A stretch of 64,000 bases of DNA from Lachnospiraceae bacterium UBA3814 (GTDB lineage Bacteria; Bacillota; Clostridia; Lachnospirales; Lachnospiraceae), in contig DFEA01000040.1 in NCBI GenBank assembly GCA_002368575.1, forward strand, positions 1,300-65,299. Direction: 5' to 3'. Shown one piece after another: positions 28,021-48,074 of the stretch (positions within the stretch are counted from its first letter, which is position 1; each line of letters begins with the position of its first letter). Position numbers and translations under genes: made by a program. The notes beneath the pieces were generated by a model, which was not told where the DNA came from, ran no database searches, and was given only the letters and a program-made list of their open reading frames with translations.

Positions 28021-28061
28021 GACATCATCCCATACTTTTATTCAGTAATGATCCGTTGGTA

Positions 28062-29894
28062 TCATTCCTCGTCAGTAAGAGGAATGAACATATTCCTTTT
28101 AAGCTCCTCTCTGGGCAAAAACGGCGCAAGATCCTCAAGAGGAGGGCTTACCATTGTTCCGTCGGGAAGCTTTCTTCCGCTGCTCTTAGGCTCCCATACC
28201 TGCTCGGTGTCGGTAAATATCTCGCAGAACAGGGGCCCTTCCATTGACAGTGCCTTATCGACCGTCTCCATCATCTCTTTGTTGCTGTGCGCGCTCAGGT
28301 AGGTATAGCCGAAGGCTTCGGCGATCCTTTTGTACTCGGGGAATGAAAGGTCTCCCGATTCCGGTCCGATACCCACTCTGGTATGCTCGCTGAAGATATT
28401 GCTCTGGGTTATCCTGATTGAATGATAACCACTGTTATTTATTAAAAAGATCTTGATGGGGAGCCTGTTTGTTATAATTGTCTGCAGCTCCTGAAGGTTC
28501 ATCATTATGCTTCCGTCGCCCTCAAGACAGATGGTCTCCCTTCCGCCGCCTCCAAGGCAGGTACCGATAGCCGCCGGAAGACCGTAGCCCATGCTTGCTA
28601 TGGCGCTGTTATTGGCCATACGGCTTCCCTTTTTTATGACATAGGCCTGATTCCCCACCACACAACAGGCGCCGTTTGATACGGCGGTAAGGCTGTTTTC
28701 CGGAAGACGACCGCTCAGATACCTGACAAAGGCGTAGACGTTGGCGCTCCTTCCGTTTTCCTCAAAATGTCTCGGAAGCGCGGCAGGGTATTCCTCCTTC
28801 CACTTCTGCGTTGTTTCTATCCATTCCGTCCGTCCGGACACCCGTTCACCGGCTTTAAGCTTAAGCTTCTCAAGGAAGTCCTTTGCGTCCGCCCACACGG
28901 GCATATCAACATGGATGGTGTGCTTTTTCAGCTCACCCTCATCTATATCCACCATTATGACCTTCGCGGCCCTTGCCCAGGTCTCCCAGTTATAGCCTAC
29001 CTGACGTATGGAGATCCTCGTTCCCACCGCCAGTATCAGGTCCGCATTCTGGATGGCGAAGTTCCCGGGCCTGTCGCCCATATTTCCCGCACGCCCGCAA
29101 TATAAAGGATGCTCGTCCTCGATAAGATCCACCGCGTTCCAGTACGTGACAACAGGTATGTTTAGCCTTTCCGCCACCTCTCTGAAGGCTTCATACGCTC
29201 CGGAAAGCCTTATGCCGTAGCCCGCGTAAAAGACCGGTCTTTCGGCCTTCTTTATTTCAGCTATGACCTTATCTATCGTTTCCTCCGGTACCGGAGGCGG
29301 AAGCATCGCGTCATCCTCCGTGGGATCGTAGCCGTGAAGCGTATCTGTCTCTATGTACGCGCCCTGAAAATTGACAGGTATGTCTATCCACACAGGCCCC
29401 GGCCTTCCCGTCGTCGCAAGATGCCAGCCCTTTTCAAGCGCGTACCTTATGTCCTTCGGGTCCTCTATCATGACCGCGTACTTTGTCATCGGCTCTACGG
29501 ACCTTATGATATCATACTCCTGATCCCCCAGGGCCCTGACCCTTGCGCCGGCATGCTTAAGCGCGTATCGCGCGGTCGTATCGTATCTGACCTGACCGCT
29601 TATCACAAACATGGGAATGGAATCAAGCCATCCGCATACCACACCCGTTATGGCGTTTGTACCTCCCGGTCCGGTGGTCACGCAGACCGCGGCTATCCGG
29701 TTGTCCAATCTCGCATAAGCCTCCGCGGCCATGGCACAGGCCTGTTCATGATGATTGTATGTGACCTTAAGGCCCTCCTTATGCCCTAACGCGTCGTTTA
29801 AGTGCATGGCTCCGCCTCCCACCACGCTGAAGCAGTCCGTCACTTTGTGACTGACCAGAAAATCGGCCACATAATCCGCAAGTCTGATCTTCAT
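28062..29894 (-). CDS. Thiamine-diphosphate-dependent enzyme of the acetolactate-synthase-like family (three-domain, 610 aa)
   Basis: N-terminal Pyr domain (VVGGGAMHLNDAL..HHEQACAMAAEAYAR..TTGPGGTNA). C-terminal ThDP-binding motif (LEGDGSIMMNLQEL..NNSGY). Confidence 0.75.
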   Translation of the reverse strand: MKIRLADYVADFLVSHKVTDCFSVVGGGAMHLNDALGHKEGLKVTYNHHEQACAMAAEAYARLDNRIAAVCVTTGPGGTNAITGVVCGWLDSIPMFVISGQVRYDTTARYALKHAGARVRALGDQEYDIIRSVEPMTKYAVMIEDPKDIRYALEKGWHLATTGRPGPVWIDIPVNFQGAYIETDTLHGYDPTEDDAMLPPPVPEETIDKVIAEIKKAERPVFYAGYGIRLSGAYEAFREVAERLNIPVVTYWNAVDLIEDEHPLYCGRAGNMGDRPGNFAIQNADLILAVGTRISIRQVGYNWETWARAAKVIMVDIDEGELKKHTIHVDMPVWADAKDFLEKLKLKAGERVSGRTEWIETTQKWKEEYPAALPRHFEENGRSANVYAFVRYLSGRLPENSLTAVSNGACCVVGNQAYVIKKGSRMANNSAIASMGYGLPAAIGTCLGGGGRETICLEGDGSIMMNLQELQTIITNRLPIKIFLINNSGYHSIRITQSNIFSEHTRVGIGPESGDLSFPEYKRIAEAFGYTYLSAHSNKEMMETVDKALSMEGPLFCEIFTDTEQVWEPKSSGRKLPDGTMVSPPLEDLAPFLPREELKRNMFIPLTDEE

Positions 29895-34486: not shown

Positions 34487-35476
34487 TCATCTTGCTCCCG
34501 CTTCCCTGCCTTCAAAAATATGCTCCCTGTACCACTCGTAGGTTCTCTGTATCCCCTCCTCAAGTGTGATACGCGGTCTGAAACCGATGTGCGAAAAGGT
34601 ATTTGACATATCCGGGCATCTCCTTTTGGGAGAGCCGGTGGTGGCGGGACGCGGAAGTATCCTCTGATCCTTTCCTACGGTCTCAAGCACTATCCCGGCA
34701 ACCTGCTCCATAGTGACCTCCGGGCCTTCATTTCCGATATTGAAGGATTTTCCCGCGGCATCGGCATTGCTCATAAGCTCAACGATCATTTCCACCGCGT
34801 CCGAAATGTAGCAGAAGGATCTTCTGTGGTCCACGGAAAATACCTCTATCTCCGCTCCCGGCCCGCTGTGATATGCTTTGCTAAGCAATTCCGGGATAAC
34901 ATGGGACATACCCATTCTGGGGCCGTAGAAATTATGAGGCCTTATGACGGTAAAGGGGAGACCGCTCTGATACAACAGTGCCTCCCCGTATATCTTTGAA
35001 AGCATATATGAGGTCCTCTTATTATCAAACGGCGTGATCGTCAGAGGCGTATCCTCGGGTGTGGGTATCTTCATATCAAAGAACTGGAGCGTCCCCGCGT
35101 ATATCTCGCTTGTCGAGGCAAACACGAACCTTTTAAGAGCCTTCTGTCTTTTCGCGGCCTCTATCATATTAACCAGTATGGCGACATTTTTGTCGAGCAC
35201 CTCATAGGAATGCTCAAGAACATTCTGTACGCCTATGATAGCGGCAAGGTGAATGATACAGTCAAAATCATTTTCAAGAGCTTTAACGCTCTCCTTATCC
35301 ATCAGGTCCATGGATATCAGTTTTACATTCCTTTTTTCCTCAAGCTCCTTTAAGGCCGAATCCCTGACACCTCTTGAAAAGTTGTCGATGATCGTGATCC
35401 CGTGATCATCCTCCAGAAGCCTGTTTATAAGATGAAGACCTATAAAGCCGGCACCGCCGGTCACTAATATTTTCAT
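34487..35476 (-). CDS. NAD-dependent nucleotide-sugar epimerase/dehydratase (extended SDR)
   Basis: MKILVTGGAGFIGLHLINRLL, ASTSEIYG and YMLSKIYGE (YxxxK). Confidence 0.75.
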   Translation of the reverse strand: MKILVTGGAGFIGLHLINRLLEDDHGITIIDNFSRGVRDSALKELEEKRNVKLISMDLMDKESVKALENDFDCIIHLAAIIGVQNVLEHSYEVLDKNVAILVNMIEAAKRQKALKRFVFASTSEIYAGTLQFFDMKIPTPEDTPLTITPFDNKRTSYMLSKIYGEALLYQSGLPFTVIRPHNFYGPRMGMSHVIPELLSKAYHSGPGAEIEVFSVDHRRSFCYISDAVEMIVELMSNADAAGKSFNIGNEGPEVTMEQVAGIVLETVGKDQRILPRPATTGSPKRRCPDMSNTFSHIGFRPRITLEEGIQRTYEWYREHIFEGREAGAR

Positions 35477-35488: not shown

Positions 35489-36895
35489 TTAACCCCTTCC
35501 TACGCTCATTAAGTCAATATCCGGTCTCTTTTTCAGAATGTCCCTCTGCTCCCCGGTCAGCACATTGTTGGCGTCATAGATGAGCCTCTTTTCTTCCTTC
35601 AGTCCCGAGAAATCCATATCATGGTATTCCTTATGATCGACGGCAAAAAATATCACATCAAATCCGTTCAGATCCGGTATCTCCTTAAGGACCTCCCTGT
35701 CAAGCTCATGCCAGTATTCCACTAACGGGTCCTGACAGGTGATGACCGCGCCCTTCCTTTCCGCCTCACGCACGAAGATCTCCGAAGGGGAGTACCTTGT
35801 GTCTCCCACATCCTGTCTGTAGCTTACTCCGAGAAGGAGTATCTTTTTGCCCGACAGATCTCCGTTCATATATCCGGTGATCCTTTCAACGCTCAGCAGC
35901 GGCATGCCGTCATTGATCTTCACCGCCTCCTCGCAAAAGGGGAAGGAAGCGTCCCTGATCCCGTAGATATCTCTTGCGGAGATCATCGCAAACAGCGGAT
36001 CCTTTGTGAGGCAGTACCCGCCTACTCCGAAGCCGGGCTGTCTTATATTGGAATGAGTAGGCCGCACACGTATGGCGTTTACGATCTCAAACATGTCTAT
36101 CCCTATGCTCTCGGCAAAGCTTCCCCACTCCTCCATGAAGGCGATGTTCATGGCCCGGTAGGAGTTTTCAAGGACCTTCGCGGTTTCGGAGGCCGCAGTA
36201 CTGCCAAGCTTTTTCAGGGGGTATTGTGCTGTATTGATGATGCTTTCAAGGAAGCCTCTGCATTTTTCCTCAGACGCCTCATTGATGCCTGAATACACCC
36301 TCCAGAAATTGACTATGGAATTGTAGTAATCCTTACCCGGCATGACCCGTTCATATGAATGTGCCAGGCGTATGCTTTCCTCAGGGAGCCCTCTTTTCTC
36401 AAACTCCTCCTTAAGGATAGGGTATACTATCCTTTCACAGGTCCCCGGAGGCACCGTCGTCTCCACTATCACCAACGCTTCGGGCCGCAGCATCCTTCCC
36501 AGGGTATGGATGGCATTCCTGAAGCCATCCATTTTAACATAGGGTCTTTCGGCATCCTTTACGATATCCAGATTTATATCCACGACTGCTATATCCGCGT
36601 AACGATAATAGTCCGCATCCGTAGTAGCCCACAGATTTCCCTCCTTACAGGCATTTCGCAACGCCTCCGAAAGGTTGTCATCCTTGTTTTCATAAGGAAA
36701 TATGCCTTTATTTATTTTGTCCGCCTTTTTCTGCCCCTCTTCACCCGGCACATCGAAGCCGATGACGTTATAGAGCACATTTCCTCCGTCATCCCTCGCG
36801 TTTGCAACGGCCACAGCCATTGCGGCTCCCACAAAGCCAAGGCCCTGAACGCAGACCGTCCTTCTGTTATCGGAAAACTTTTCAGGTAAACTCAT
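35489..36895 (-). CDS. Nucleotide-sugar dehydrogenase (UDP-glucose/GDP-mannose dehydrogenase family)
   Basis: N-terminal Rossmann VCVQGLGFVGAAMAVAVA, catalytic-Cys region GFGVGGYCLTKDP, and a C-terminal UDP-binding-type domain. Confidence 0.75.
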   Translation of the reverse strand: MSLPEKFSDNRRTVCVQGLGFVGAAMAVAVANARDDGGNVLYNVIGFDVPGEEGQKKADKINKGIFPYENKDDNLSEALRNACKEGNLWATTDADYYRYADIAVVDINLDIVKDAERPYVKMDGFRNAIHTLGRMLRPEALVIVETTVPPGTCERIVYPILKEEFEKRGLPEESIRLAHSYERVMPGKDYYNSIVNFWRVYSGINEASEEKCRGFLESIINTAQYPLKKLGSTAASETAKVLENSYRAMNIAFMEEWGSFAESIGIDMFEIVNAIRVRPTHSNIRQPGFGVGGYCLTKDPLFAMISARDIYGIRDASFPFCEEAVKINDGMPLLSVERITGYMNGDLSGKKILLLGVSYRQDVGDTRYSPSEIFVREAERKGAVITCQDPLVEYWHELDREVLKEIPDLNGFDVIFFAVDHKEYHDMDFSGLKEEKRLIYDANNVLTGEQRDILKKRPDIDLMSVGRG

Positions 36896-36916: not shown

Positions 36917-38026
36917 TTATTCAAGGGGTTCCTTCAGCACCCATTCATTCATATCATTCCGTTCAAACAGCTCCGTATTATAGAAGCTGTTCACGATCCT
37001 CCAGAACTCGGACTCGGAATAGCCTAAAAATTCACAGAAATCCTCCACACATTTGGGATCCAGCTTTCCATCCCTTTCCCTGACGAGCTTTACCGCTTCC
37101 TCTCTGCTCATCATCCCATATCTCACAAACCTTGACGCATAATCCGTAGCCACACCGTGTCCGAACTTCGGATATTTCATCCAGGGATGGACGATATAGG
37201 CCCTTGTATCCACCTGATCGAAGTTTTCCGCATTCTGTGTCCTGTCCCACTCATGAGTAAGGTCATGGAAGCCATGCTCCTTGGCAAACCTGTAATTGGC
37301 AACACTGTTCCAGGGCACGAAATACGATACATACATGGGATCCAGCCTGTTTATCTCATCCTCTGTCGGAGCCTTCAGCAATGAAAGATCCTTCATGTCC
37401 ACTCCCGGTATTGAGCAAAGCTCATCAAAAGCTATGTCGCTTGCCACACCGTTGTTCAAAAGCCCCCGGGCTGAATAGGTCTCCTTCGCATCCGCTCCCC
37501 CGTATTCGAGACTCACGTTTTCACCGTAGACCAGTAACGGGATATTGAGATTTAACGCCATCCTCATCGGAAAGGTATATATCAGCCTGTCCACATACCA
37601 GGTGGGCTTTCCGTATTTTTCAAAGGTGTATCTCATAACGGCCTTCTGCGTCTTGATGTCAGGCTTCAGACTTATAATATGACAGCCGAATTCCTCAGAG
37701 ATATTCCTGATATTGTGTATTCCGGCCCGCGTCATCGGAAAATTATCCTCAACACTTACAAGTATCGGATTCATCTTCATCACATTCTTCATGATATGTG
37801 TCTGAAAATGACTGTCCTTTCCACCGCTGGCAGCTATCACACAGTCATAGCCGTCGCCGTTCATCCCCCTGTACCTGTCGCAAAGCGCCTGAAGCTCCTT
37901 GAAGCGTTCGTCCCAGTTGACCCTGCTTTTTGCTTCATGTGCCCTGCACGCGGAGCATATGCCCTCGCTGTCAAATTTTATTCCCGGTCTCGTATCCGGC
38001 ATTACGCATCTTTTACAATACCTCAT
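36917..38026 (-). CDS. N-acetyl-sugar amidotransferase (WbpG/PseA/WbuX family, PP-loop ATPase)
   Basis: MRYCKRCVMPDTRPGIKFDSEGICSACRAHE zinc-ribbon start and PP-loop AASGGKDSHFQ, as in the TIGR03573-type family from memory. Confidence 0.75.
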   Translation of the reverse strand: MRYCKRCVMPDTRPGIKFDSEGICSACRAHEAKSRVNWDERFKELQALCDRYRGMNGDGYDCVIAASGGKDSHFQTHIMKNVMKMNPILVSVEDNFPMTRAGIHNIRNISEEFGCHIISLKPDIKTQKAVMRYTFEKYGKPTWYVDRLIYTFPMRMALNLNIPLLVYGENVSLEYGGADAKETYSARGLLNNGVASDIAFDELCSIPGVDMKDLSLLKAPTEDEINRLDPMYVSYFVPWNSVANYRFAKEHGFHDLTHEWDRTQNAENFDQVDTRAYIVHPWMKYPKFGHGVATDYASRFVRYGMMSREEAVKLVRERDGKLDPKCVEDFCEFLGYSESEFWRIVNSFYNTELFERNDMNEWVLKEPLE

Positions 38027-38138: not shown

Positions 38139-38167
38139 ATTATAGATAAAATAAAACGGTTTGTCAA
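38139..38167 (-). promoter_or_regulatory. Consensus sigma-A promoter (TTGACA-17 nt-TATAAT) internal to the long minus-strand cluster
   Basis: On the minus strand, TTGACA is at 38167-38162 and TATAAT at 38144-38139, with exactly 17 nt between. It sits in the 166-nt gap between the oxidoreductase stop and the amidotransferase start. Confidence 0.7.
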
Positions 38168-38192: not shown

Positions 38193-39374
38193 TCACAACT
38201 CTACCCAGCTTCCCTTTTCGGCCGAATAATATGAGGCATATATTATCTTCGCCACATCATAGGCAAGACCAAAGCCCGATTTGGGCTCCCTGTCATAATA
38301 TACGGCTTCCATAAAATCCCTCATTTCATCGGTATATCCTCTTATTATCTCATCCTCCAGCGCAAGATTATTCCACCCAGTCTTGGAAGGAAGCATTTCC
38401 GAGAGATACACATCCTCAAGCCTTTCCTCATCAAGGAAATAGGTGCTCATCATGTTGTTAAGGGTAAGGGTGCAGTTTATTGCCGCATCGTTACAGTACA
38501 GCTCGATGTAGTTCTTACTGCCTCCGAGGAGCACATCAGTGGCTATTATCAGCGCCTTGGTGCCGTCGGTAAAATTAATTATGACTGTGCCGCTGTCCTC
38601 CACATCATGCGGTCTTGCGGCTATATGCCTGTGTTCATATTCCGTAAGGCCGGAGGTTATGTTTCCCATATCCGCAAGCAGGGAACGTACCCTTATCTCC
38701 ACTCCCCTTGCCCTGGCCTCTATTCTCTTAAGCCACAGTATGGCCGCAAGCGGATGTGCCCCCGTTCTTATAAAGGTCCCGCCCCCGGTCCTGTTCCACT
38801 CTCCTGCCACCGGGGAACTGGAGCCCTTAAGGCTCTCCTCACCCTTGGCATAGAGTATCCTGCTCTTCTTCTTACTTATTATCTCGGCCGCCTTGGTCAC
38901 TGCGGGCGCATACACAAAATTCTCGGCATACATGAACTTCCTGCCGGAGCTTTTCACCACCTCGGAGAGCGCATCCATTTCCTCAAGAAGCTCAAAATAC
39001 ATCTTTTCCTTTTTCACCTTAAGCCCTATGGGCTCACTGTCGCCCTCTTTTCCGAAGTAACCGCTCAGGGGCTTTTCACAGATAACGTGCTTTCCGGCGT
39101 TAAGCGCCCTTTTGATCATTTCCTCATGCACATAGGGAGGGGTGCAGATATCTATTACATCTATCTCCCTGTCCCTCAAAAGATCCTCGAAATCAAGGGA
39201 GGCATTCTGAAAATCATACCTTTCCTTCATCCTGCTGAGCTGCTCCGGACGCCTTGCGATAATGTGCTTTGCGCAGACCGGAACTCCGGTATATCTTCTC
39301 AGCGCGTTCATATGAAGCTCCGTAGCGCGCCCCGCTCCGGCCATTCCGATGCAGATCTCACCTTTTTTATTCAT
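38193..39374 (-). CDS. Gfo/Idh/MocA-family NAD(P)-dependent oxidoreductase
   Basis: N-terminal Rossmann ICIGMAGAGRATELH, EKP motif (HVICEKPL), and family-typical C-terminal alpha/beta domain. Confidence 0.7.
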   Translation of the reverse strand: MNKKGEICIGMAGAGRATELHMNALRRYTGVPVCAKHIIARRPEQLSRMKERYDFQNASLDFEDLLRDREIDVIDICTPPYVHEEMIKRALNAGKHVICEKPLSGYFGKEGDSEPIGLKVKKEKMYFELLEEMDALSEVVKSSGRKFMYAENFVYAPAVTKAAEIISKKKSRILYAKGEESLKGSSSPVAGEWNRTGGGTFIRTGAHPLAAILWLKRIEARARGVEIRVRSLLADMGNITSGLTEYEHRHIAARPHDVEDSGTVIINFTDGTKALIIATDVLLGGSKNYIELYCNDAAINCTLTLNNMMSTYFLDEERLEDVYLSEMLPSKTGWNNLALEDEIIRGYTDEMRDFMEAVYYDREPKSGFGLAYDVAKIIYASYYSAEKGSWVEL

Positions 39375-40185
39375 ACAGGCTCTCCCTGAACTTTATAGTC
39401 CTTCTAACCTTTTCCATCAGAGCATCAAACCCTTCTTCGTCAAGCTGCTGTGCGCTGTCGCTCAAGGCATCCTTCGGGGACGGATGGACCTCGATCTCCA
39501 GGCCGTCACACCCTGCCATAACGGCGCTTAAGGACATCGGCCCGATCATTTCCGCTCTGCCCGTCGCGTGTGAGGGATCAACCACCACCGGCAGATGCGT
39601 CAGCTCCTTAAGAGCCGCCACCGCGCTCAGATCCAGCGTGTTTCTGGTATAGGTCTCAACGGTACGGATACCGCGTTCGCAGAGGATGACATCGTGATTA
39701 CCTTCCTTCATGATGTACTCCGCACAGTTGAGCCATTCCTCTATAGTCGCGTTCATCCCCCTCTTAAGCAGCACCGGCCGTCCGCAGCGTCCCACCTCCA
39801 CAAGCAGGGAATAATTCTGCATGTTTCTTGTCCCGATCTGCAGGACATCCGCATATTCGCTTATCAGAAAAACGTCCCTGGTATCCGTGACCTCGGTAAC
39901 TATGGGCAGTCCGAAGGCGTCTCCGGCCTTCTTCAGATACTGAAGTCCTACTCTTCCCAGCCCCTGGAAGGAGTACGGTGAGGTCCTCGGCTTGTACGCC
40001 CCGCCTCTGAGCATATTTGCTCCGGCCTTTTTTACGATCTCAGCCGCCTTCATCACCTGCTCCTCGGATTCAACGCTGCAGGGCCCTGCGATAACAAGGA
40101 AATCCCTCCCCACGGTGATGTCCGAAACCTTAAATTCCGTTCTCTTTTCCTGAGCCTCAAGGCCTGCAAGCTTTAATCCGTACAT
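39367..40185 (-). CDS. 3-deoxy-7-phosphoheptulonate (DAHP) synthase homolog, class I-beta, no regulatory domain
   Basis: [54 protein letters not shown] and [12 protein letters not shown] are DAHPS I-beta signatures rather than KDO8PS. It overlaps the downstream gene by 8 nt, and its start abuts the ACP stop. Confidence 0.75.
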
Positions 40186-40433
40186 TACGCTTCCTCTGTT
40201 TTCTTACGGATCATCTCCACCAGGCCTCCCACAGTCTGAAAATCAGAAGAGGTGAGCTCCGAATCGTCAAAGCTGATCCCGAACTCATCCTCAAGCTCCA
40301 TAACAAAGCTGACGATGCCTACTGAATCGATATATCCGTTTTCTATGAAATTAAAGCCGTCAATATCCGACCCGGCAGGGATATCATATTCACTCTGGAT
40401 ATGCTCCAGTACAAACTCTCTTATCCTGTCCAT
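40185..40433 (-). CDS. Acyl/peptidyl carrier protein
   Basis: 82 aa, acidic, with phosphopantetheine-site motif GYIDSVGIVSFVMELE. Confidence 0.75.
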   Translation of the reverse strand: MDRIREFVLEHIQSEYDIPAGSDIDGFNFIENGYIDSVGIVSFVMELEDEFGISFDDSELTSSDFQTVGGLVEMIRKKTEEA

Positions 40434-40439
40434 CCTGAT

Positions 40440-41954
40440 CTATGCCTCCTGTGCTCTTACCGTTTCAAATATTTTATTCCTTACAAGCTTTCCCATGGGA
40501 TTCCTTGGCAGCGTGTCAAGGAAAAACACATAATGTGGCTGCTGGAAATCCGCCAGCCTCTTTGCGCAGTACAGCTTAATGCTCCTCTCCGATATCTCGG
40601 AGGCCTCTTCCTTTACAACCGCAAGAGCGACCACCTCCCCGAGCCTGTCATCGGGATATGAAAAGGCCGCACATTCCTTTACTCCCTCGGCCTGCGATAC
40701 TGCCTGCTCCACATCGTAAGGATATACATTTATACCGCCAGTGATTATAAGCTCCTTCTTCCTGCCGCAGAAATACAGATATCCGTCCTCATCCAGTCTC
40801 CCGAGATCACCGGTCCTGAAATACCCATCCTGGGTAAACGCGTTGTCCGTAAGCTCCCGCTGCCCGTAATACCCGTTGAAAATGAGCCCGGTCTTTATGG
40901 CTATCTCTCCGATCTCGCTGGAGGGAAGCCCCTCTCCCTCATCATTGATCACTTTTATGTCCGCCTCCGGTATGGCCTGTCCCACAGACTGCTGCTTGCT
41001 CTCGGCCTCCCTGAAATTAATGCTGGTGGCGGTAGAGGTCTCGCTGGTTCCGTACATCTCGTGAAAATCGCATTTAAGCTTCTTAATAAGCTCCGTTCTA
41101 ACATGGGGCTCCAAAAGTGCCGACGAGGATACGATAGACCGAAAGCCCGTTATGTCAGGCGCAAAGGGGCTGGAAAGGAGCTGGGCTATCTGTCCGAGCT
41201 GCGCTGAAACAGCTATGGTAAAGGTCACCCTCTGCTCGCTGGCGCACTTAAGCCACAGATTGGCGGTAAATCTCGGAAGCAGTATGGATTCAGCCCCTAT
41301 TGTGAGCGGAAGCATCACAAGCCTCTCAGCAAGCGAATGATAAAGAGGTGTGGCCGCCAGCACCCTGTCGTTTTCGGTTATGTCATACAGCCTGATATGG
41401 GCCTCTATACGCTTTAATTTGTTGTTCTGGGTGAGCTCTATTGGCTTTGGTACCCCGGTGGAGCCTGAGGTCATGGTGAGTATCCAGGTCTCATCCCCCG
41501 TGATCCCGTCCATCTGCGGTATCCTGTCCTCCGAAGAAAGCACGCTGTCAAAGGTATCGCAGCCTTCAGCCTCTCCATCCAGGCAGAGCCTCAGTCCTGT
41601 GCTGCCGTTAAACGTAAACTTTTTCCAGAAGGACCTTCTGGCTATTATGTGCTTTACCCTTCCCGCTTCAAAGGCGGTCTTTATCGCCTCCTCCGGGAGG
41701 GTCGGATTGATCGGGGCAAGCCCCGCGCCTATCGCCGCGGACGCAAGCATCAGAGCCGCGGATTCGATGCTGTTGTTCATCGGGATCCCGATGATATCGT
41801 TTCTTTCTACCCCCCTGCTCTTAAGATATGCCGCATATCTGCATACCAGTGACGAAAGCTCCCCATAGGTCATTTCCTCGCCATCGCACCATATTGCGGT
41901 CTTATCCGGTTTTTCCTTTACCTGTTTAAAAAAAAGTTCTGCTATGCTTCCCAT
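40440..41954 (-). CDS. AMP-dependent synthetase/ligase (adenylating enzyme, DltA/acyl-CoA-ligase superfamily)
   Basis: LTMTSGSTGVPKPI, YGTSETS, TGDLGRLDEDGYLYFCGRKKELII and GGINVYP. The ORF-track start at 41984 is TTG, so the ATG at 41954 is used. Confidence 0.8.
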   Translation of the reverse strand: MGSIAELFFKQVKEKPDKTAIWCDGEEMTYGELSSLVCRYAAYLKSRGVERNDIIGIPMNNSIESAALMLASAAIGAGLAPINPTLPEEAIKTAFEAGRVKHIIARRSFWKKFTFNGSTGLRLCLDGEAEGCDTFDSVLSSEDRIPQMDGITGDETWILTMTSGSTGVPKPIELTQNNKLKRIEAHIRLYDITENDRVLAATPLYHSLAERLVMLPLTIGAESILLPRFTANLWLKCASEQRVTFTIAVSAQLGQIAQLLSSPFAPDITGFRSIVSSSALLEPHVRTELIKKLKCDFHEMYGTSETSTATSINFREAESKQQSVGQAIPEADIKVINDEGEGLPSSEIGEIAIKTGLIFNGYYGQRELTDNAFTQDGYFRTGDLGRLDEDGYLYFCGRKKELIITGGINVYPYDVEQAVSQAEGVKECAAFSYPDDRLGEVVALAVVKEEASEISERSIKLYCAKRLADFQQPHYVFFLDTLPRNPMGKLVRNKIFETVRAQEA

Positions 41955-42010
41955 AAACCTGTCCCTGTCCGCGCCGGTTTTCAAAAAACCGTGCGCTTAT
42001 GCTCAAATAC

Positions 42011-42643
42011 TTATAACGGCATAAATCTGGCCGGGTTTCCAAAGGTCTTCATTCCCGCAGGCACATCCTTAAGCACAACGCTCCCTATGCCGATATACGC
42101 GTCGTCGCCTACCTGAACATCCTGTGCGATCGCCGCGTTCGCGCCTACAAATACCCTTTTTCCTATCCTCACGTTTCTCAGTATGCTGCACATCCCGCTT
42201 AAGGTCGTATAATCATCTATAAATACATCATGTCCGACTCCGGAGGAAAACACGGTGACGAATTTACCTACCGTGGAATTAACCGACAGCTTGGAATACG
42301 GGAACATGATAAGCCCCTCTCCGTAGTGGCTGAATTCCGTGATCCTGGCTGTAGGATGAATGATCGGCGGAAAGACCGCGCCCTTTTCCTTAAGCTCTCT
42401 GGAGCGAAGCTCCTTGGCCCCGGGGTCTGCGATCGCCATTGCAAATACCTCTCCCTCCTTTGGATTCCAGTCGCTGTTCCTTCCGACGATCCTGTAATCA
42501 CATTCCACGCCCTTAAGCGCATCAAAGTTATTGTCCAGAAAGCCGCCGATCTCCCATGTGGGGCTGACTTCGTTTATCTCCTTAATGATCTGTAAAAGCT
42601 CCTTGCCCAATCCCCCTGCGCCTACTATATATATTTTATCCAT
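42011..42643 (-). CDS. NeuD/PglD-family hexapeptide-repeat sugar acyltransferase
   Basis: MDKIYIVGAGGLGKELLQII...GFLDN N-terminal Rossmann-like domain, then a left-handed beta-helix repeat region (IGKRVFVGANAAIAQDVQVGDDAYIGIGSVV). Confidence 0.75.
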   Translation of the reverse strand: MDKIYIVGAGGLGKELLQIIKEINEVSPTWEIGGFLDNNFDALKGVECDYRIVGRNSDWNPKEGEVFAMAIADPGAKELRSRELKEKGAVFPPIIHPTARITEFSHYGEGLIMFPYSKLSVNSTVGKFVTVFSSGVGHDVFIDDYTTLSGMCSILRNVRIGKRVFVGANAAIAQDVQVGDDAYIGIGSVVLKDVPAGMKTFGNPARFMPL

Positions 42644-42712: not shown

Positions 42713-43405
42713 TCATTTTCCGTACAGCTCCCTGTATACAGCCTGTGCCACTTTAAAATCAAACTCATCATCTATGTCTACAGAGTATTTTCTGTCCATG
42801 ATATACGCAAAGACGCCTTCCGCAAACAGATTCCTGTGGTTTTTTATAAAATATCCCGTGTTTATCAGGTAGATTGCCCCGTTTATCCTGTAGTATTTTT
42901 CAAAATCCTGCCGCTGCTTACCGTCACCGCCTCCGAAGCCGGACATATCCCCGTCCGGGCCCAGGGGATGAAACCACGCGGGAGGATGGTCCGCCTCACA
43001 AACCGAAAATACCGCATTTGCCTTCTTGCTTTCGTACAGCTTAAAGGCCTGCCTGATATGCTCTCCCGTTCTTAAGGGGCTGGTGGGCTGCAGCAGGGTA
43101 ACGGTATCAAAGCTTTTCCCGAGCTCCTCGTATTTTCGAAGGACCTCAAGCACCGCATCCCAGGAATCGGCCTTATCCGAAGACATTTCCGCGCTTCTTA
43201 AAAACGGGACATCCGCGCCGGAGCTGCGGGCTATCTCCGCGTATCTTTCAGAATCCGTCGAAACATGGATCGTATCAAAAAGCCCCGACTCCTTTGCCGC
43301 GTTTACCGAATACGCCAGTAACGGTTTTCCGGCCAGCTCCTTTATATTTTTATCCTTAAGTCCCTTTGAGCCGCTTCTTGCGGGTATAACAGCAATATTT
43401 CCCAT
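42713..43405 (-). CDS. neuA: Acylneuraminate (nonulosonate) cytidylyltransferase
   Basis: IAVIPARSGSKGLKDKNIKELAGKPLLAYSV and ..LQPTSPLR.. Start set to ATG at 43405. Confidence 0.8.
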   Translation of the reverse strand: MGNIAVIPARSGSKGLKDKNIKELAGKPLLAYSVNAAKESGLFDTIHVSTDSERYAEIARSSGADVPFLRSAEMSSDKADSWDAVLEVLRKYEELGKSFDTVTLLQPTSPLRTGEHIRQAFKLYESKKANAVFSVCEADHPPAWFHPLGPDGDMSGFGGGDGKQRQDFEKYYRINGAIYLINTGYFIKNHRNLFAEGVFAYIMDRKYSVDIDDEFDFKVAQAVYRELYGK

Positions 43406-43415
43406 ACCTTCCCCC

Positions 43416-44579
43416 CTACAGGTCATAAAAGCTCTTCTTCAGGTCAATGGTGCCGCATTCAAGGGATCTTCTGATCTGTGCTATGATCCTCTCTGAGGTG
43501 TTTCCGTCCCCGAAGGGGCTGACCACATTTTGTGAAAGCTCCTTAAATTCCGGCGTCAGGGCCTTTGAGATCGCACGGACTATGTCCTCCTTCTTCGGAC
43601 TGCAGCAGATCAGGTTATCTGCCATTATCCTCCCCTTCTGCCTGTCTCCTATGTTGACCACGGGTATTTTCATGGAGGGCCCCTCAGATATGCCGCTTGA
43701 GGAATTGCCCAGCATGAAGCTTGAGTATTTCAATGCTGACAGGTATCTTACAGCGCCGAGAGATGCGGTGTAAAACCAGTTTTCATGTCTTCTGCTTTCC
43801 TTCTCCCATATCTCGTTTATCCGCCTTCCGCCCGCGTCGGCATTTGATCTGGTAATGATATAGCGAAGCTCCTTAAAGGAGTCCATTGCCCCTATCAGCT
43901 CGTACAGCTGCTCCTCCATAGTAAGGTTTTCAAGTGTGACGGGATGAAAGGTGACCACCGCGTAATCATATCCGGACAGCTCAAAGCCAAGGGAGCTCTG
44001 AAGCTCGCCCAGTGTAAGCTTCGGGAGGAAGAGACAGTTCTCTACCCCCAGTGATCCTACATTAAACACCCTCTCCGGGTCCTCGCCCAGCTGTATGACC
44101 CTCTTCCTGTATACCTCACTTGAGGTAAAATGAAGGTAGCTCATTTTGGTGATGCTGTGCCTTAAAAATTCATCCACCGCACCCTCTGTGGTATCTCCCC
44201 CGTAAAGATGCGCTATGGGTATGCCAAGCATCGCCGCGGCAAAGGCGGCCCCGAAGACCTCAAATCTGTCGCCCAGCACGATAAGGTAATCGTAATCCCT
44301 GCCTTCGAAATAATCCGTAAAGCCCTTTATCGTATCTGCCGCAGCCCTTGCCATTCCTCCCCTGCTGTCATCGTCAAGCGGGATCCTTATACTCTCTGTA
44401 ATGGAAATACCGTCTTTTTCAATGGCCCTGCGGGTCTCTCCGAAAAGCGGATCCAGATGGCTTCCTGTTATCACGAAATCAAGAGCTATATCCTCCGCGC
44501 TGTTCAGTTTTATTATAAGCGGCTTCAACAGATCATATTCCGCCCTGCTGCCGCTCACCAGACATATCCTATAACTCAA
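43416..44579 (-). CDS. neuC: UDP-N-acetylglucosamine 2-epimerase (hydrolysing), NeuC family
   Basis: ICLVSGSRAEYDLLKPLI, ..VLGDRFE.., ..HLYGGD.. and ..GNSSSGI.. are typical NeuC/LegG-type patterns. Confidence 0.8.
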   Translation of the reverse strand: MSYRICLVSGSRAEYDLLKPLIIKLNSAEDIALDFVITGSHLDPLFGETRRAIEKDGISITESIRIPLDDDSRGGMARAAADTIKGFTDYFEGRDYDYLIVLGDRFEVFGAAFAAAMLGIPIAHLYGGDTTEGAVDEFLRHSITKMSYLHFTSSEVYRKRVIQLGEDPERVFNVGSLGVENCLFLPKLTLGELQSSLGFELSGYDYAVVTFHPVTLENLTMEEQLYELIGAMDSFKELRYIITRSNADAGGRRINEIWEKESRRHENWFYTASLGAVRYLSALKYSSFMLGNSSSGISEGPSMKIPVVNIGDRQKGRIMADNLICCSPKKEDIVRAISKALTPEFKELSQNVVSPFGDGNTSERIIAQIRRSLECGTIDLKKSFYDL

Positions 44580-45570
44580 TGGGCTCGTCCTCCGAAAAAT
44601 CCCTTATCGCCTTAGTGCCTATCACCTCAAACCACCTCATTGGAGATATCCCGTTTGCGGGCCGCTTGGCCATTATGTTTTCCTCTGTCAGGACCTCTCC
44701 CTTTTTGATATCACGCAGTGCTACGATGCTTTTTCTGGCAATGACTATATTCCCCGTTTCAGAGGGACTGGGTCTCTTCACACCGTCGCCCAGCGCCTTT
44801 TCTATATTTCTTATAGAGGAGACCATGGCCTTTAATTCATCAGGCTCAAGGCTTGCCCTGTGGTCGGGTCCCGGCATCCTGCGGCTTAAGGTAATATGCT
44901 TTTCTATGATCACCGCTCCCATGGCAACGGCCGCGATCGGGACCTCGATCCCCCTTGTATGATCGGAGTATCCCACCTCAAGGCCGAATCTCTCCCTCAT
45001 GGTCTTCATTGCGTTTAAATTTACATCCTCAAAGGGGGTGGGATATTCCGTATTGCAGTGCAGAAGCGTTATATCCTCCGTTCCGTTTTCCCTGAGCACA
45101 TTGATGGCGGCCTCTATCTCCTCCGGATAACACATTCCGGTAGACAGAACGACAGGCTTTTTCGTCCTTCCTATGGCGATAAGGTACGGCAGATGGGTTA
45201 TCTCCCCTGAGGGGATCTTCCAGAAGGGCATGTTGAAGGAGCTCAGGTATTCCACGCTGTCTACCGTAAAGGGCGTTGAAAGAAAGGTTATGCCCGTTCT
45301 TTTGCATTCCTCATTAAGCTCGTCAAAAGCGGAATAAGGCAGCGTAAGCTCTAAACACATATCCAGCTGGCTCCCCTCGGAGCCCGTGTTTTCCTTCTGG
45401 TAATCCGCCTTCTGCGCAAACTTTGACATTACATAGCTGGTCTTGCCGGTCTGAAACTTGACTATGTCCGCTCCGGCCTCTTTGGCAACATGTATCAGCT
45501 CCTTTGCGAGTCCCATATTTCCATTATGATTGATGCCCGCCTCGGCGATGATCAGTGTTCTGTTCCTCAT
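44569..45570 (-). CDS. neuB: N-acetylneuraminate (nonulosonate) synthase with C-terminal SAF domain
   Basis: LIIAEAGINHNGNMGLAKELI..VKFQT, WKIPSGEIT, VVLSTGM, LHCNTEYP, GYSDHT, and a SAF-like tail (IVALRDIKKGEVLTEENI). Confidence 0.85.
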   Translation of the reverse strand: MRNRTLIIAEAGINHNGNMGLAKELIHVAKEAGADIVKFQTGKTSYVMSKFAQKADYQKENTGSEGSQLDMCLELTLPYSAFDELNEECKRTGITFLSTPFTVDSVEYLSSFNMPFWKIPSGEITHLPYLIAIGRTKKPVVLSTGMCYPEEIEAAINVLRENGTEDITLLHCNTEYPTPFEDVNLNAMKTMRERFGLEVGYSDHTRGIEVPIAAVAMGAVIIEKHITLSRRMPGPDHRASLEPDELKAMVSSIRNIEKALGDGVKRPSPSETGNIVIARKSIVALRDIKKGEVLTEENIMAKRPANGISPMRWFEVIGTKAIRDFSEDEPIEL

Positions 45571-45658
45571 ATTTCCCCTTTCCGCGTTTTACTTTCCCGG
45601 CACCGGTACGCTTTGCAGCTCCTTCGCTCAGGCATGAGCTCCGGATACATGCCGTTCC

Positions 45659-46702
45659 TTACTTTACATTCAGATGTCTCTTCATCCGTTCCATTTCATC
45701 AAGCTGTCCCATATCCAGCCAGTCCTCTTCATTTACGAGATAGGTTCCCACCTTCTCACCATCCCTTATGCAATTTTCAATAACATCTGTTATGTCAATT
45801 TTGGTGTTTCTCGGGATTTTCTTAAGAAAGCCCTGCTCTATCACATACAGCCCCGTATTTGTATAGAACTCAAAGGAGGGCTTTTCGGTGATGCCCGTAA
45901 CTTTTCCCTGACTGTCCGTTTCAATGGTTCCATAAGGGATCGTCACCTTTTTTCTCGCACATACGATCGTTATCAGGTTTTTATCCGCCCTGTGCCTTTC
46001 GACCAGGTCGGCATAATCACACTGTACCAGTATATCACAGTTTGTAACGAATACAGTACTCTCATACCTTCCTTCGACAAGCTTCAGGCCACCGGCGGTC
46101 CCCCAGAATTCCGGTTCCTCGATAAAATCTATATCATAGCTGTTATCATTATCCTGAAAGAAGGATTTTATAAAATTCTTCTTATAGTTTACTATCATAT
46201 CAAAATGATCGCAGGAATATTCCCCGAACCTGGACATTATATGCTCGGTTATGGTTTTATTCCCGATCGGTATCAGGGGCTTTGGAAGTATTTCCGTGAA
46301 GGGCCTGAGCCTGCTGCCCTTCCCTCCCGCCATGATTATCACCGGGAGCGCGACCCTCCTTTTCCTGAAATAACGGTTGCTTAAAAACCTTATATCCAGG
46401 ATGCGGCCTTCCTCGTCCACTATCGGAAGAGCGGTGATACACTTTTCCCGCATTAAGCTGTCATAATCTATCTGCTCGTTTGCCGGAACGCTTATCGGAG
46501 AATAATTGGCCACCTCCTTTATGGGATGATCAAGATCGCCTCCCCTTATGATATAGCGACGCACATCGCCGTCGGATACCGCGGCGACGAGCTTATCATC
46601 CCTGCATACAAAAGCTACCGCATTCTCCCCCGCGTCTATGGTCTTCATAGTATCTACGATCTTTGTATCCTCTGAAACTATGTATAGTCCTAAATCAGTC
46701 AA
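45659..46702 (-). CDS. CBS-pair + sugar-phosphate nucleotidyltransferase (PtmE-like)
   Basis: N-terminal ~110 aa has a tandem CBS-like pattern. It is followed by VIIMAGGKGSRLRPFTEILPKPLIPIG, the NTP-transferase signature. Confidence 0.7.
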   Translation of the reverse strand: MTDLGLYIVSEDTKIVDTMKTIDAGENAVAFVCRDDKLVAAVSDGDVRRYIIRGGDLDHPIKEVANYSPISVPANEQIDYDSLMREKCITALPIVDEEGRILDIRFLSNRYFRKRRVALPVIIMAGGKGSRLRPFTEILPKPLIPIGNKTITEHIMSRFGEYSCDHFDMIVNYKKNFIKSFFQDNDNSYDIDFIEEPEFWGTAGGLKLVEGRYESTVFVTNCDILVQCDYADLVERHRADKNLITIVCARKKVTIPYGTIETDSQGKVTGITEKPSFEFYTNTGLYVIEQGFLKKIPRNTKIDITDVIENCIRDGEKVGTYLVNEEDWLDMGQLDEMERMKRHLNVK

Positions 46703-46713: not shown

Positions 46714-48051
46714 TTATCCTGTGATCCTTCTCAATCTGTCCTCTTTATCCCTTAAAAACCTCCTGTCAAACCTTGACAGACTGTCCTTGTATTTAATGAT
46801 ATTCTTCTTTTTCCAGGGCATGAGCACACATAAAAGTCTCCATATCCTGCAGACGGTATCATTATAAAGTGTGGTTTTTACATATGTAAGCTTAGTCCCA
46901 AGCTCCAGCCTCTTTTCCTCCTTTGTGAGGCGGACCCTCATTTTCTTAAGCCTTTCCTTATCCCTTAATAAGGCTTCCAGATAATCACATATCCCGATAT
47001 AGGCAGGCACATCGGTTTTTTTCCCGTATATCCTTTCCGCCTCCTCTTTGTTTACGGGATTCCATTCCGAGCTCATTGCAGACGGGTCATCCATGGCTTT
47101 TTCAAAAAGCTCGTAATCGGTTATATACCTGTCCCTCCGAAAGAGTGCTATCGCCAGGCCGCTGTCGATTATACCCTTTTCCTTTCCGAGCGCAAAGCAG
47201 GGTATCCCCAGATAAAAGGCCTCCATTACGGATGAGCTTATCCAGGTGGTGAAGGCGTCTGCCACATGTATCCACTGCTTTATTGAATACTTCTTGATGC
47301 AGACAAAATTATCATGCTTTTTTTCAAGCTCCTCTATTCTTCCGATGCTCTGATATTCAGAGGGATGAGGCCTGTAAATGAAGATCGTGTCATCGTGGGT
47401 GCTCAGATATCTGCTCCACCATTCCGTAAGCATTTCGGAGCATTCCGTTTCATAGTCGTACATGGTCTTCCAGAAATCACCGAATCTGTTCATCTTGTAG
47501 CGCAGGCTTTCCTCTGTCTGGCATTCCGATATGGTGCAGAAATCCGAAGCAAACAATATCCATTTTTTATTTACATCCAGCCCAAATTCCTCTGCCAGAT
47601 ATTTTTTATCATAAAAATAATCCTTAAAGCGGGGGCTGCAAAGATCGAACTGCACGGGCCCCGAGGGTATGATATATTCGTTCCTCACCCCTGCCCTTTT
47701 CATATAGCCGGCGGCGGTTTCTCCCCAGCACAGATGGGCTGCTTCCTTTGCCCTGCCCTGCGGAAGGAAGATGGATATATCGGCTTCATTGGAAAAGCCT
47801 ATCTGCTCCTCCTGAAGATTGACCCAGGCCGCCTCCTTGTAGGGAACAGAGCATAATGCCGACATCACATTGGTATCTCTGCAGCTTGGGACCACATATA
47901 TCCTCGGATGGTAAAAAAAGCTCTTCCAGAAATCCCTCCAGTACATATTTACGAGCTTTACCTTAAAGCCTCTTCTTTCCAGCTCGAGCTTTATGAGCAG
48001 ATCGTTTTCATAGCTCCTCTCAACCAGTTCATAAAAGATCAGACAGTCCAT
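46714..48051 (-). CDS. Putative surface-carbohydrate biosynthesis protein (candidate glycosyl/nonulosonate transferase), uncharacterised
   Basis: The N-terminus MDCLIFYELVERSYENDLLIKLELERRGFKV resembles the 'surface carbohydrate biosynthesis protein' family often found beside neuB/neuC-type genes; my recollection here is weak. Start set to ATG at 48051 (GAGAGGGG upstream). Confidence 0.35.
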   Translation of the reverse strand: MDCLIFYELVERSYENDLLIKLELERRGFKVKLVNMYWRDFWKSFFYHPRIYVVPSCRDTNVMSALCSVPYKEAAWVNLQEEQIGFSNEADISIFLPQGRAKEAAHLCWGETAAGYMKRAGVRNEYIIPSGPVQFDLCSPRFKDYFYDKKYLAEEFGLDVNKKWILFASDFCTISECQTEESLRYKMNRFGDFWKTMYDYETECSEMLTEWWSRYLSTHDDTIFIYRPHPSEYQSIGRIEELEKKHDNFVCIKKYSIKQWIHVADAFTTWISSSVMEAFYLGIPCFALGKEKGIIDSGLAIALFRRDRYITDYELFEKAMDDPSAMSSEWNPVNKEEAERIYGKKTDVPAYIGICDYLEALLRDKERLKKMRVRLTKEEKRLELGTKLTYVKTTLYNDTVCRIWRLLCVLMPWKKKNIIKYKDSLSRFDRRFLRDKEDRLRRITG

Positions 48052-48074
48052 TTTACCCCTCTCTGCGCTCACGC

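Follow-up and report, generated by a model that had tools for sequence, protein, structure and literature searches.

What does a surface-polysaccharide region do with a 3-deoxy-D-arabino-heptulosonate 7-phosphate (DAHP) synthase, encoded between a small carrier protein and an oxidoreductase? The question is raised by 64,000 nucleotides from Lachnospiraceae bacterium UBA3814 (assembly GCA_002368575.1, contig DFEA01000040.1, positions 1,300 to 65,299 of the forward strand; hereafter the window, numbered from its first letter), a large Wzm/Wzt-type surface-polysaccharide region. Five of its genes, all on the minus strand, encode in order of transcription a PglD-like acyltransferase, an adenylate-forming acid ligase, an acyl carrier protein (ACP), a DAHP synthase (DAHPS) and a Gfo/Idh/MocA oxidoreductase (GFO). 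This cassette appears to be a self-contained, horizontally mobile tailoring module that produces an unusual acid for the N-acylation of an amino sugar. We put at about three in four the probability that DAHPS and GFO make the acid and that the ligase, the carrier and the PglD-like enzyme attach it to an amino sugar; the full chain through a carbocyclic acid, set out below, falls a little short of an even chance. We class the system with the amino-sugar N-acyl tailoring modules already known, the source of the acyl group being what is new here. A first-pass annotation of the window knew of no described pathway of this kind, and literature searches agree: full-text searches of 8 million papers and preprints yielded no publication that describes the cassette or reports dehydroquinate as a substrate of a GFO enzyme.

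Organization of the cassette

The gene order given by the first-pass annotation is confirmed by the map of open reading frames (ORFs) together with Pfam and NCBIfam matches. The first gene (42643..42011) encodes a PglD/NeuD/VioB-type left-handed beta-helix acyltransferase of 210 residues, with a PglD_N domain and hexapeptide repeats. The ligase gene (41984..40440) yields 514 residues from a TTG start and carries AMP-binding and AMP-binding_C domains; an in-frame ATG at 41954 gives a form of 504 residues, the one used by the NCBI annotation of this metagenome-assembled genome (MAG). Next come the 82-residue DltC/aryl-carrier-like ACP (40433..40185; PP-binding domain), the 272-residue class Ibeta, unregulated DAHPS (40185..39367; TIGR01361) and the 393-residue GFO (39374..38193; GFO_IDH_MocA). 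The translational coupling claimed for the last three genes is borne out at both junctions: the ACP stop and the DAHPS start overlap by one base (TAATG), and the DAHPS gene overlaps the oxidoreductase gene by 8 nt (ATGAATAA). The G+C content of the cassette equals that of the neighbouring genes, a comparison that reveals no compositional trace of recent transfer.

A dlt D-alanylation system is ruled out, as the first-pass annotation had argued, by the lack of any DltB (MBOAT) or DltD domain in the window ORFs scanned and in the related cassette loci. Likewise, tblastn of the window with aroB and aroE protein returned no match, in line with the earlier statement that no further shikimate gene lies nearby.

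The DAHP synthase is predicted to be an ordinary class Ibeta enzyme

DAHPS scores 385.9 bits on TIGR01361 (cut-off 267.75) and 426.6 bits on NF006421 (cut-off 335). Identity as a 3-deoxy-D-manno-octulosonate 8-phosphate (KDO8P) synthase is excluded by the NCBIfam scores, the KDO8P synthase models giving at most 119 bits (118.8) against cut-offs of at least 242. The protein aligns along its catalytic barrel with the unregulated enzymes of Aeropyrum pernix (1vs1, residues 3–261, 311 bits) and Pyrococcus furiosus (1zco, residues 13–259, 308 bits). The barrel occupies residues 3–261 of the 272, and no regulatory domain (ACT or chorismate mutase) was found at either the N- or the C-terminus, as had been read at first pass. 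The catalytic motifs, including LSD and KPRT(S), are identical to those of 1vs1 and 1zco in the alignment, and C36, K65, P66, S69, R120, K141, R142, R171, E232, H234 and D243 each reach 97% invariance or more in cassette and housekeeping DAHPS alike; from published structures, we take these residues to serve in binding the metal, erythrose-4-phosphate (E4P) and phosphoenolpyruvate (PEP). Comparison of 18 distinct cassette DAHPS with 75 non-cassette sequences revealed a single diagnostic position, the conservative Leu30 versus Val/Thr. With the active site unchanged, a neofunctionalised DAHPS is rejected as far as sequence tells, and by sequence the protein is a class Ibeta enzyme that would make DAHP from E4P and PEP.

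The cassette DAHPS sequences form one monophyletic clade in a neighbour-joining tree. In a scan of one genome per species, which returned 80 loci, all homologues at least 75% identical to the window's enzyme have the ligase and ACP genes directly upstream and the same GFO nearby; their carriers are Lachnospiraceae, Lacrimispora xylanisolvens, Hungatella, Mobilitalea sibirica, a Paenibacillaceae MAG and a Clostridium MAG. Database matches add Anoxybacter fermentans, an Ignavibacteriales MAG, an Erysipelotrichaceae MAG and one 2.6-Mb contig. None of the 73 relatives at 67% identity or less carries ligase, ACP or GFO neighbours; instead, aroB lies within 10 kb in 38 of them and aroE in 39, the setting of housekeeping aro operons, which the window DAHPS lacks, there being no aroB or aroE in the window. 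The first-pass annotation had proposed looking for the cassette in other genomes, and the finding of the same genes together in many unrelated ones argues that their association is not due to chance.

These observations bear on the simplest alternative, namely that DAHPS is a plain enzyme of aromatic amino-acid synthesis that lies by chance in a glycan cluster, while the ligase, ACP and PglD-like enzyme deliver an unrelated amino or hydroxy acid. Its sequence, indistinguishable from that of a functional DAHPS, would suit such a role. However, the clade is separate from the housekeeping relatives, whose aro operons are devoid of these genes; the ACP–DAHPS junction overlaps or abuts in the window and, where read, in relatives of different phyla; the order ligase–ACP–DAHPS recurs in most of them; and another class of DAHPS occupies the equivalent place beside GFO in loci of the ATP-grasp type, described below. 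A chance placement is very improbable on this evidence.

GFO is the hub of a larger module family

A metagenome scan with a GFO alignment yielded 80 more loci, which were analysed with a tblastn protein panel, ORF clustering and domain searches; the related loci compared with the window cassette are labelled with L-numbers (e.g., L091, L174). Neighbourhood counts are given over the 43 loci in which GFO has 3 kb or more of flanking sequence on each side, and are to be read as proportions, as they contain near-duplicate metagenome contigs. A carboxylate activator lies within 6 kb of GFO at 36 of the 43 loci: the ligase, usually with ACP, at 19, and an ATP-grasp enzyme at 18. The seven loci without an activator all have distant GFOs of 54% identity or less. 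A DAHPS is present at 25 loci, 10 with the 272-residue class Ibeta enzyme of the window type and 15 with a non-orthologous class Ialpha enzyme of 340 residues (TIGR00034, aroFGH; 239.9 bits, cut-off 173.2). One class Ialpha partner protein is indexed in 247 assembly-collection blocks, the samples shown being gut-type metagenomes, and a search for its homologues gave no match named for a cultured organism. The recruitment of two non-orthologous DAHPS classes, together with the unchanged active site, argues that the module needs genuine DAHP.

A 3-dehydroquinate (DHQ) synthase, AroB, is found with GFO at five of the 43 loci; two that were scanned score about 360 bits on TIGR01357 (cut-off 305). 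Locus L090 reads ligase–DAHPS–AroB–GFO with overlapping genes and an aroE-type dehydrogenase 2 kb off; L110 and L118 read ligase–ACP–(HMGL-like)–AroB–GFO–DAHPS, where HMGL denotes hydroxymethylglutaryl-CoA lyase and the DAHPS is of class Ialpha; AroB precedes GFO in L151 and lies beside the module in L148. A true AroB directly upstream of GFO implies that GFO acts at or after DHQ. Among the related biosynthetic loci examined, none was noticed to encode a DHQ dehydratase, a dehydroshikimate dehydratase or an enzyme that uses chorismate, and the lack of a DHQ dehydratase or a chorismate-using gene even where DAHPS, AroB and AroE are all encoded places the branch point at the level of dehydroquinate or quinate.

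The same gene content speaks to the idea that a later shikimate product is the acid, with DAHPS boosting flux and GFO aromatising or modifying dehydroshikimate or a chorismate-derived ring, in the manner of the dihydrodiol dehydrogenases of its family, to give a hydroxybenzoyl, galloyl or cyclohexene-carboxyl group. Pathway-specific DAHPS genes are standard in clusters that use shikimate-derived aromatic acids, the ligase is as similar to aryl- and cinnamoyl-CoA ligases as to aliphatic ones, the ACP weakly matches the aryl carrier AsbD, and relatives of GFO include dihydrodiol and 4,5-dihydroxyphthalate dehydrogenases. Even so, such an outcome is improbable, given that the accessory shikimate genes of the biosynthetic loci stop at dehydroquinate or quinate and that neither a dehydratase of DHQ or dehydroshikimate nor a chorismate-utilising enzyme was seen there.

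The first-pass annotation had suggested as its second option that the DAHPS homologue condenses PEP with a sugar phosphate, to yield either a 3-deoxy-ulosonic building block or the precursor of the acyl group, on which the oxidoreductase acts. The tight and repeated pairing of GFO with DAHPS favours the acyl precursor and the action of GFO upon it, while an altered aldose-phosphate specificity and a 3-deoxy-ulosonic building block are disfavoured by the unchanged active site, the recruitment of class Ialpha enzymes and the DHQ synthases adjoining GFO.

GFO itself shows a GFO_IDH_MocA N-terminal domain (PF01408, 67.6 bits) and many invariant columns, including an EKP motif (E100-K101-P102). The subfamily is highly conserved: its best 120 database matches are all at least 75% identical, and the named ones among them read only ‘Gfo/Idh/MocA family oxidoreductase’ or ‘predicted dehydrogenase’; no named NCBIfam equivalog comes near its cut-off. 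A search of PDB sequences matched the Rossmann domain only, the C-terminal substrate domain being divergent. An AlphaFold2 model (mean predicted local distance difference test score, pLDDT, 79.8) was compared using Foldseek. The closest folds belong to dehydrogenases, namely those for scyllo- and myo-inositol and for levoglucosan, KanD2/GenD2 and DgpA, with template-modelling (TM) scores of 0.64–0.69 and at most 22% identity. As a group they act on ring secondary alcohols, the inositol dehydrogenases ranking first, which lends slight support to a cyclitol substrate. The distant GFOs of L153, L154 and L166 (50–54% identical) are encoded within or next to groups of TRAP or TctC carboxylate-transporter genes, near shikimate-dehydrogenase genes and genes for xylose-isomerase-like TIM-barrel (IolE-like) proteins, and L154 has IolD-like thiamine pyrophosphate (TPP) enzyme and aldehyde-dehydrogenase genes in addition. 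These loci may represent a catabolic pathway for a cyclitol carboxylate, which would point, if weakly, to a cyclitol as the GFO substrate.

Some modules carry further genes. One or two FabH-like ketoacyl synthases III (KAS III), a FabG-like reductase and/or an HMGL-type gene occur in L134, L141, L159, L160, L110 and L142, between ACP and GFO and sometimes without any DAHPS; such variants suggest chain extension or another aldol partner. A radical-SAM/SPASM gene follows GFO in the close relatives L004–L006 and L092 (88–92% identical) and is absent from the window, and L148 has a B12-binding radical-SAM gene between GFO and the ligase gene.

Proposed activation and delivery of the acyl group

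The ligase is recognized by its AMP-binding domain (218.9 bits) and AMP-binding_C, and its orthologues in the cassette loci are 44–80% identical. Its specificity cannot be read from its best PDB relatives, which are FadD13, malonyl-CoA synthetase, 4-coumarate-CoA ligase, oxalyl-CoA synthetase and MenE. The ACP matches PP-binding at 29.7 bits, with weak NCBIfam matches to ACP, DltC and AsbD, and its phosphopantetheine site is Ser37 in GYIDSVG (codon at 40325..40323). In each of the nine window-type (class Ibeta) loci that were mapped, the ACP gene stands between those of the ligase and DAHPS; in a few other relatives GFO lies between ACP and DAHPS, and L090 is devoid of ACP.

The PglD-like protein scores 159.9 bits on TIGR03570 (NeuD/PglB/VioB; cut-off 160.8). 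Its nearest solved structures are VioB (7txp), WeeI (4m9c), the acetyltransferase domain of PglB (4m98), PerB and PglD, all of them N-acetyltransferases of 4-amino-4,6-dideoxyhexoses. His138 aligns with a histidine of VioB and, in our reading of the alignment, would be the catalytic base of the family. Orthologues of 58–82% identity lie directly upstream of the ligase gene in L004–L006, L019, L089, L091, L092, L135 and L142. The fixed association with ligase and ACP suggests that the PglD-like enzyme may take an acyl-carrier donor.

Across the module family, delivery takes three forms. In the first, that of the window, a PglD-like transferase gene precedes the ligase gene directly, in eight ligase loci. 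In the second (type-B), a 356-residue protein, encoded in five loci and mostly accompanied by a carbohydrate esterase family 4 (CE4) deacetylase, stands ahead of GFO–ligase–ACP–DAHPS; this protein has no match in Pfam, NCBIfam or PDB, and the type-B operons of Anoxybacter, Lacrimispora and Mobilitalea also carry an FkbM methyltransferase. In the third, found in polysaccharide or flagellin (Maf/Pse, pseudaminic acid) islands, an ATP-grasp enzyme lies beside GFO–DAHPS and a DegT aminotransferase frequently accompanies them. All three solutions point to amide formation with a sugar amine.

The first option of the first-pass annotation, in which the ligase/ACP pair supplies an acyl group for transfer to an amino sugar by the NeuD/PglD-like enzyme, is supported by this context. 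The PglD-like gene is kept in L091, where the five cassette genes stand alone amid unrelated genes, and in L019 and L089 it comes after genes for a LegC/DegT-type aminotransferase and for a small phosphoglycosyl transferase resembling PglC; the solved relatives of its product act on 4-amino sugars. By analogy, L019 and L089 would follow bacillosamine logic with one acyltransferase only. The two options had been posed as alternatives; on this evidence each is partly right.

L091 and the type-B operons also bear on the proposal of a heptulosonic acid, made by DAHPS and GFO, activated with cytidine monophosphate (CMP) and polymerised as a sugar resembling 3-deoxy-D-manno-oct-2-ulosonic acid (Kdo), the ligase and ACP serving something else. 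A CMP-transferase and several glycosyltransferases are indeed encoded nearby, and DAHPS, KdsA and NeuB are mechanistic relatives (PF00793 and PF03102 matches). Against this, neither a cytidylyltransferase nor a glycosyltransferase is found in the stand-alone L091 or in the type-B operons of Anoxybacter and Lacrimispora, and a carboxylate-activating enzyme accompanies GFO at the large majority of loci (36/43). We regard this explanation as extremely improbable.

A proposed route to an N-acylated nonulosonic acid

The chemical steps proposed here are drawn from gene content, order, coupling, family membership and co-occurrence, which are observed directly. In the route through a carbocyclic acid, the cassette DAHPS, being unregulated, would provide a dedicated supply of DAHP from PEP and E4P. 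DAHP would then be converted to DHQ by the housekeeping AroB in this organism and, judging from the relatives that encode one, by a module-borne AroB elsewhere. GFO would perform the committing redox step on the cyclitol carboxylate, in the simplest version by reducing the 3-keto group, which would yield a polyhydroxy-cyclohexane carboxylic acid of the quinate type. The ligase, from its domain content and fixed position, would adenylate this acid and load it onto Ser37 of the 82-residue carrier, from which the PglD/VioB-type transferase would place the acyl group on the 4-amino group of a nucleoside diphosphate (NDP)-2-acetamido-4-amino-2,4,6-trideoxyhexose. Finally, the NeuC-, NeuB- and CMP-transferase-type enzymes encoded upstream would lead to a CMP-activated 7-N-acyl legionaminic-type nonulosonic acid for the surface polymer, and a WbuX-type amidotransferase could turn the 5-N-acetyl group into an amidine.

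Several points weigh against this route. No AroB or LegC is encoded in the 64-kb window, so the second and fifth steps require genes elsewhere in the genome. A DHQ synthase accompanies GFO at a small share of the well-flanked loci (5/43), and the near-duplicate contigs among those loci limit what the counts can carry. Neither sequence nor fold reveals the substrate of GFO; the modelled fold in particular does not discriminate a cyclitol from a pyranose. To our knowledge, the characterised PglD/VioB-type enzymes all use acyl-CoA rather than acyl-carrier proteins, and the ligase might form a thioester of CoA in place of the carrier. With LegC absent and the LegB candidate far below threshold, the sugar part depends on genes elsewhere, unless the nonulosonate is other than legionaminic acid, which the NeuB and NeuC models do not separate from N-acetylneuraminic acid. 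Finally, FkbM methyltransferases are frequent in the related loci (within 6 kb of GFO at 12 of 43), and the sole DAHPS-like polyhydroxy N-acyl group known on a nonulosonate, that of Treponema denticola, is acyclic.

The last two points favour the main rival, in which GFO reduces the C2 keto group of DAHP or of 3-deoxy-D-arabino-heptulosonate (DAH) to a 3-deoxy-heptonic acid that is then activated and N-linked. Such an acid would be the C7 analogue of the 2-O-methyl-3-deoxyhexonoyl group of T. denticola and the 3-deoxy-tetronoyl group of Vibrio cholerae O1. GFO-family enzymes reduce ring or 2-keto sugars, glucose-fructose oxidoreductase among them reducing a 2-ketose; L174 reads ATP-grasp–GFO–FkbM–DAHPS inside a Maf and Pse island; and some variants encode HMGL-type 4-hydroxy-2-oxoacid aldolases. 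However, an acyclic acid leaves the DHQ synthases directly before GFO, and aroE, unexplained, as these enzymes would drain its substrate; no phosphatase for the 7-phosphate is present in the five-gene or the stand-alone cassette; and the T. denticola chain has six carbons, whereas E4P and PEP give seven. On balance, we consider the acyclic acid unlikely and retain the carbocyclic route as the working proposal. Its extension beyond the window, that gut, rumen and other anaerobes bear a quinate-like cyclitol-carboxyl amide on nonulosonic acids, bacillosamine-type sugars and possibly deacetylated polymers by diverting the opening two shikimate steps through GFO as a ‘dehydroquinate oxidoreductase’, one GFO–DAHPS core being joined to each of the three attachment routes, is tentative and stands at rather less than even odds.

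Relation to known systems

N-acyl groups of V. cholerae O1 and of T. denticola flagellin offer partial precedents, neither of them named in the first-pass annotation. Perosamine of V. cholerae O1 carries an N-linked 3-deoxy-L-glycero-tetronate, in whose formation wbeL, described as unique to V. cholerae O1, is involved. The tetronate cassette (wbeK-O, also rfbK-O) encodes a small carrier, an ATP-dependent ligase-like enzyme and a hexapeptide acyltransferase, and the C4 acid is thought to be built with homologues of Fe-alcohol dehydrogenase and LuxC/E-type reductase. The window resembles it in having a carrier, an ATP-dependent ligase and a hexapeptide acyltransferase in a glycan locus; in both, a dedicated acid would be made within a surface-glycan cluster and would acylate the 4-amino position of a 4-amino-4,6-dideoxyhexose, which in Vibrio belongs to the O-antigen. 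The Vibrio locus is, however, without DAHPS and GFO, the cassette and its flanks are without the Fe-alcohol dehydrogenase and LuxC/E-type reductase, and there is no sequence-level orthology; the cassette would thus work alike without being a member of that system.

The flagellin glycan of T. denticola, described in a 2026 paper, is a pseudaminic-type nonulosonic acid bearing a 7-N-(2-methoxy-4,5,6-trihydroxyhexanoyl) group. This acyl group is a polyhydroxy 3-deoxy acid such as would be expected of a PEP/pyruvate aldol product after keto-reduction and O-methylation, and the related locus L174 has its ATP-grasp–GFO–FkbM–DAHPS genes in a Maf/Pse flagellin island. The window has no FkbM methyltransferase, flagellin or Maf gene, and the Treponema chain is C6 rather than C7.

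An extra unregulated DAHPS in a biosynthetic cluster, feeding a shikimate-derived building block, is also known from PhzC and from BagF/FevY; the window's DAHPS scores 309 bits on the BagF/FevY NCBIfam model (cut-off 700). The products there are diffusible aromatic compounds, and chorismate or dehydroshikimate is diverted by enzymes that the clusters encode, whereas here the setting is a surface-glycan locus and GFO is the sole diverting enzyme.

With the legionaminic acid pathway (LegB, C, H, G, I, F and PtmE) the window shares NeuC-type, NeuB-type, CMP-transferase, CBS-nucleotidyltransferase and PglD/LegH-type genes in the usual order. It differs in lacking LegC and in tying the enzyme at the LegH position to a ligase and a carrier, in place of a plain acetyl-CoA enzyme. 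Finally, KanD2/GenD2, which act with KanS2/GenS2, and the inositol dehydrogenases are the closest folds to GFO (identity at most 22%). The KanD2–KanS2 pairing has a parallel in the DegT-family aminotransferases that adjoin GFO–DAHPS in ATP-grasp-type loci, although the window-type cassette has no adjacent aminotransferase.

Implications

If the proposal is true, the module defines a glycan decoration of a new class and gives early intermediates of the shikimate pathway a new outlet, with the primary metabolism of aromatic amino acids plumbed straight into surface-sugar tailoring. The module is widespread in uncultured gut, rumen and environmental bacteria, and its product may be a frequent surface epitope of gut Firmicutes, with consequences for phage receptors, immune recognition and flagellin/S-layer biology. 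It would give a testable function to a large family annotated merely as Gfo/Idh/MocA oxidoreductase, account for many ‘3-deoxy-7-phosphoheptulonate synthase’ annotations outside aro operons, and suggest gene candidates for unusual polyhydroxy N-acyl groups such as that of T. denticola flagellin. Cultured carriers are Anoxybacter fermentans, Lacrimispora xylanisolvens DSM 3808 and Mobilitalea sibirica DSM 26468.

The surrounding window

Upstream of the cassette on the minus strand, nonulosonic-acid genes encode a CBS plus nucleotidyltransferase protein (46702..45659; Pfam and NCBIfam matches), a NeuB/LegI-type synthase (45570..44569; TIGR03569, 482.6 bits against a cut-off of 399.65), a hydrolysing NeuC-type 2-epimerase (44579..43416; TIGR03568, 426.4 bits, cut-off 235.9) and a CMP-transferase (43426..42713; CTP_transf_3). 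A gap of 69 bp separates the last from the PglD-like gene, and the block 42713..46702 is probably co-transcribed with the cassette. The hydrolysing 2-epimerase, synthase and CMP-transferase make up a legionaminic-type trio, with the limit that the NeuB and NeuC models do not separate legionaminic acid from N-acetylneuraminic acid. A candidate nonulosonic-acid transferase of 452 residues (46714..48072, minus strand) scores 144.7 bits on TIGR04396 (cut-off 125) and has a sub-threshold match (79.8 bits) to the BFO_1060 family, named from the transferase of Tannerella forsythia for Pse/Leg derivatives.

Downstream, also on the minus strand, lie genes for a WbuX/PseA-type N-acetyl-sugar amidotransferase (38026..36917; TIGR03573, 367.6 bits, cut-off 203.2), an NDP-sugar dehydrogenase (36895..35489; TIGR03026, 239.2 bits, cut-off 189.8) and a dehydratase/epimerase of the short-chain dehydrogenase/reductase (SDR) type (35476..34487; Epimerase domain). 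The last has sub-threshold matches to LegB and RmlB, that to LegB being 122 bits, far under the cut-off of 475. A sigma-70-type promoter, TTGACA-17-TATAAT with 12 of 12 consensus matches (38139..38167, minus strand), sits in the 166-bp gap between the oxidoreductase stop and the amidotransferase start and is followed by a strong GGAGG ribosome-binding site and an ATG. A consensus promoter occurs only here, after the GFO gene, and the junctions within the cassette are short or overlapping; the promoter thus implies that the cassette ends one transcription unit and that the amidotransferase gene opens the next.

A LegC-type aminotransferase was not found by tblastn of the 64-kb window with a LegC-family protein. 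The absence of a DegT/LegC-type aminotransferase across 64 kb of a region with a legionaminic-like cluster is shared by the closely related L004 and L005.

Elsewhere in the window, a second NeuB-family synthase (27142–29894, minus strand) has 292 residues, no SAF domain and 35% identity to the main NeuB. It adjoins a 610-residue acetolactate-synthase-like TPP enzyme, and the pair is flanked by a second ATP-binding cassette (ABC) exporter, a GT2 glycosyltransferase and a nucleotidyltransferase. A TPP enzyme of about 610 residues also lies at the edge of L006 and L175, and that of L123 is 75% identical to the window's. Three tandem paralogous ORFs of 384–394 residues (13165–16838, minus strand; mutual identity 29–57%) have no Pfam match, nor did the one scanned against NCBIfam have a match there.

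From about 16000 to 24000 the G+C content drops to 0.375–0.405, versus about 0.48–0.51 elsewhere, the genes lie on the plus strand and the GC skew is reversed. This island encodes two LicD proteins, a Stealth-family phosphotransferase, a cholinephosphotransferase-like protein and an SDR, and looks like a separately acquired block for phospho-substituent or teichoic-type decoration. Two AAA-ATPase_like/PDDEXK_9 genes and a DUF4143 AAA ATPase gene lie amid glycan genes at 9305–13064 and 23912–25357. At the edge of the glycan region, a sulfate assimilation block (1105–9272) encodes a CysN/C-type fusion of GTPase and adenosine 5'-phosphosulfate (APS) kinase, a protein with 3'-phosphoadenosine 5'-phosphosulfate (PAPS) reductase and helix-turn-helix (HTH) domains, a sulfate-binding protein and CysA, and could supply sulfate for a sulfated polymer.

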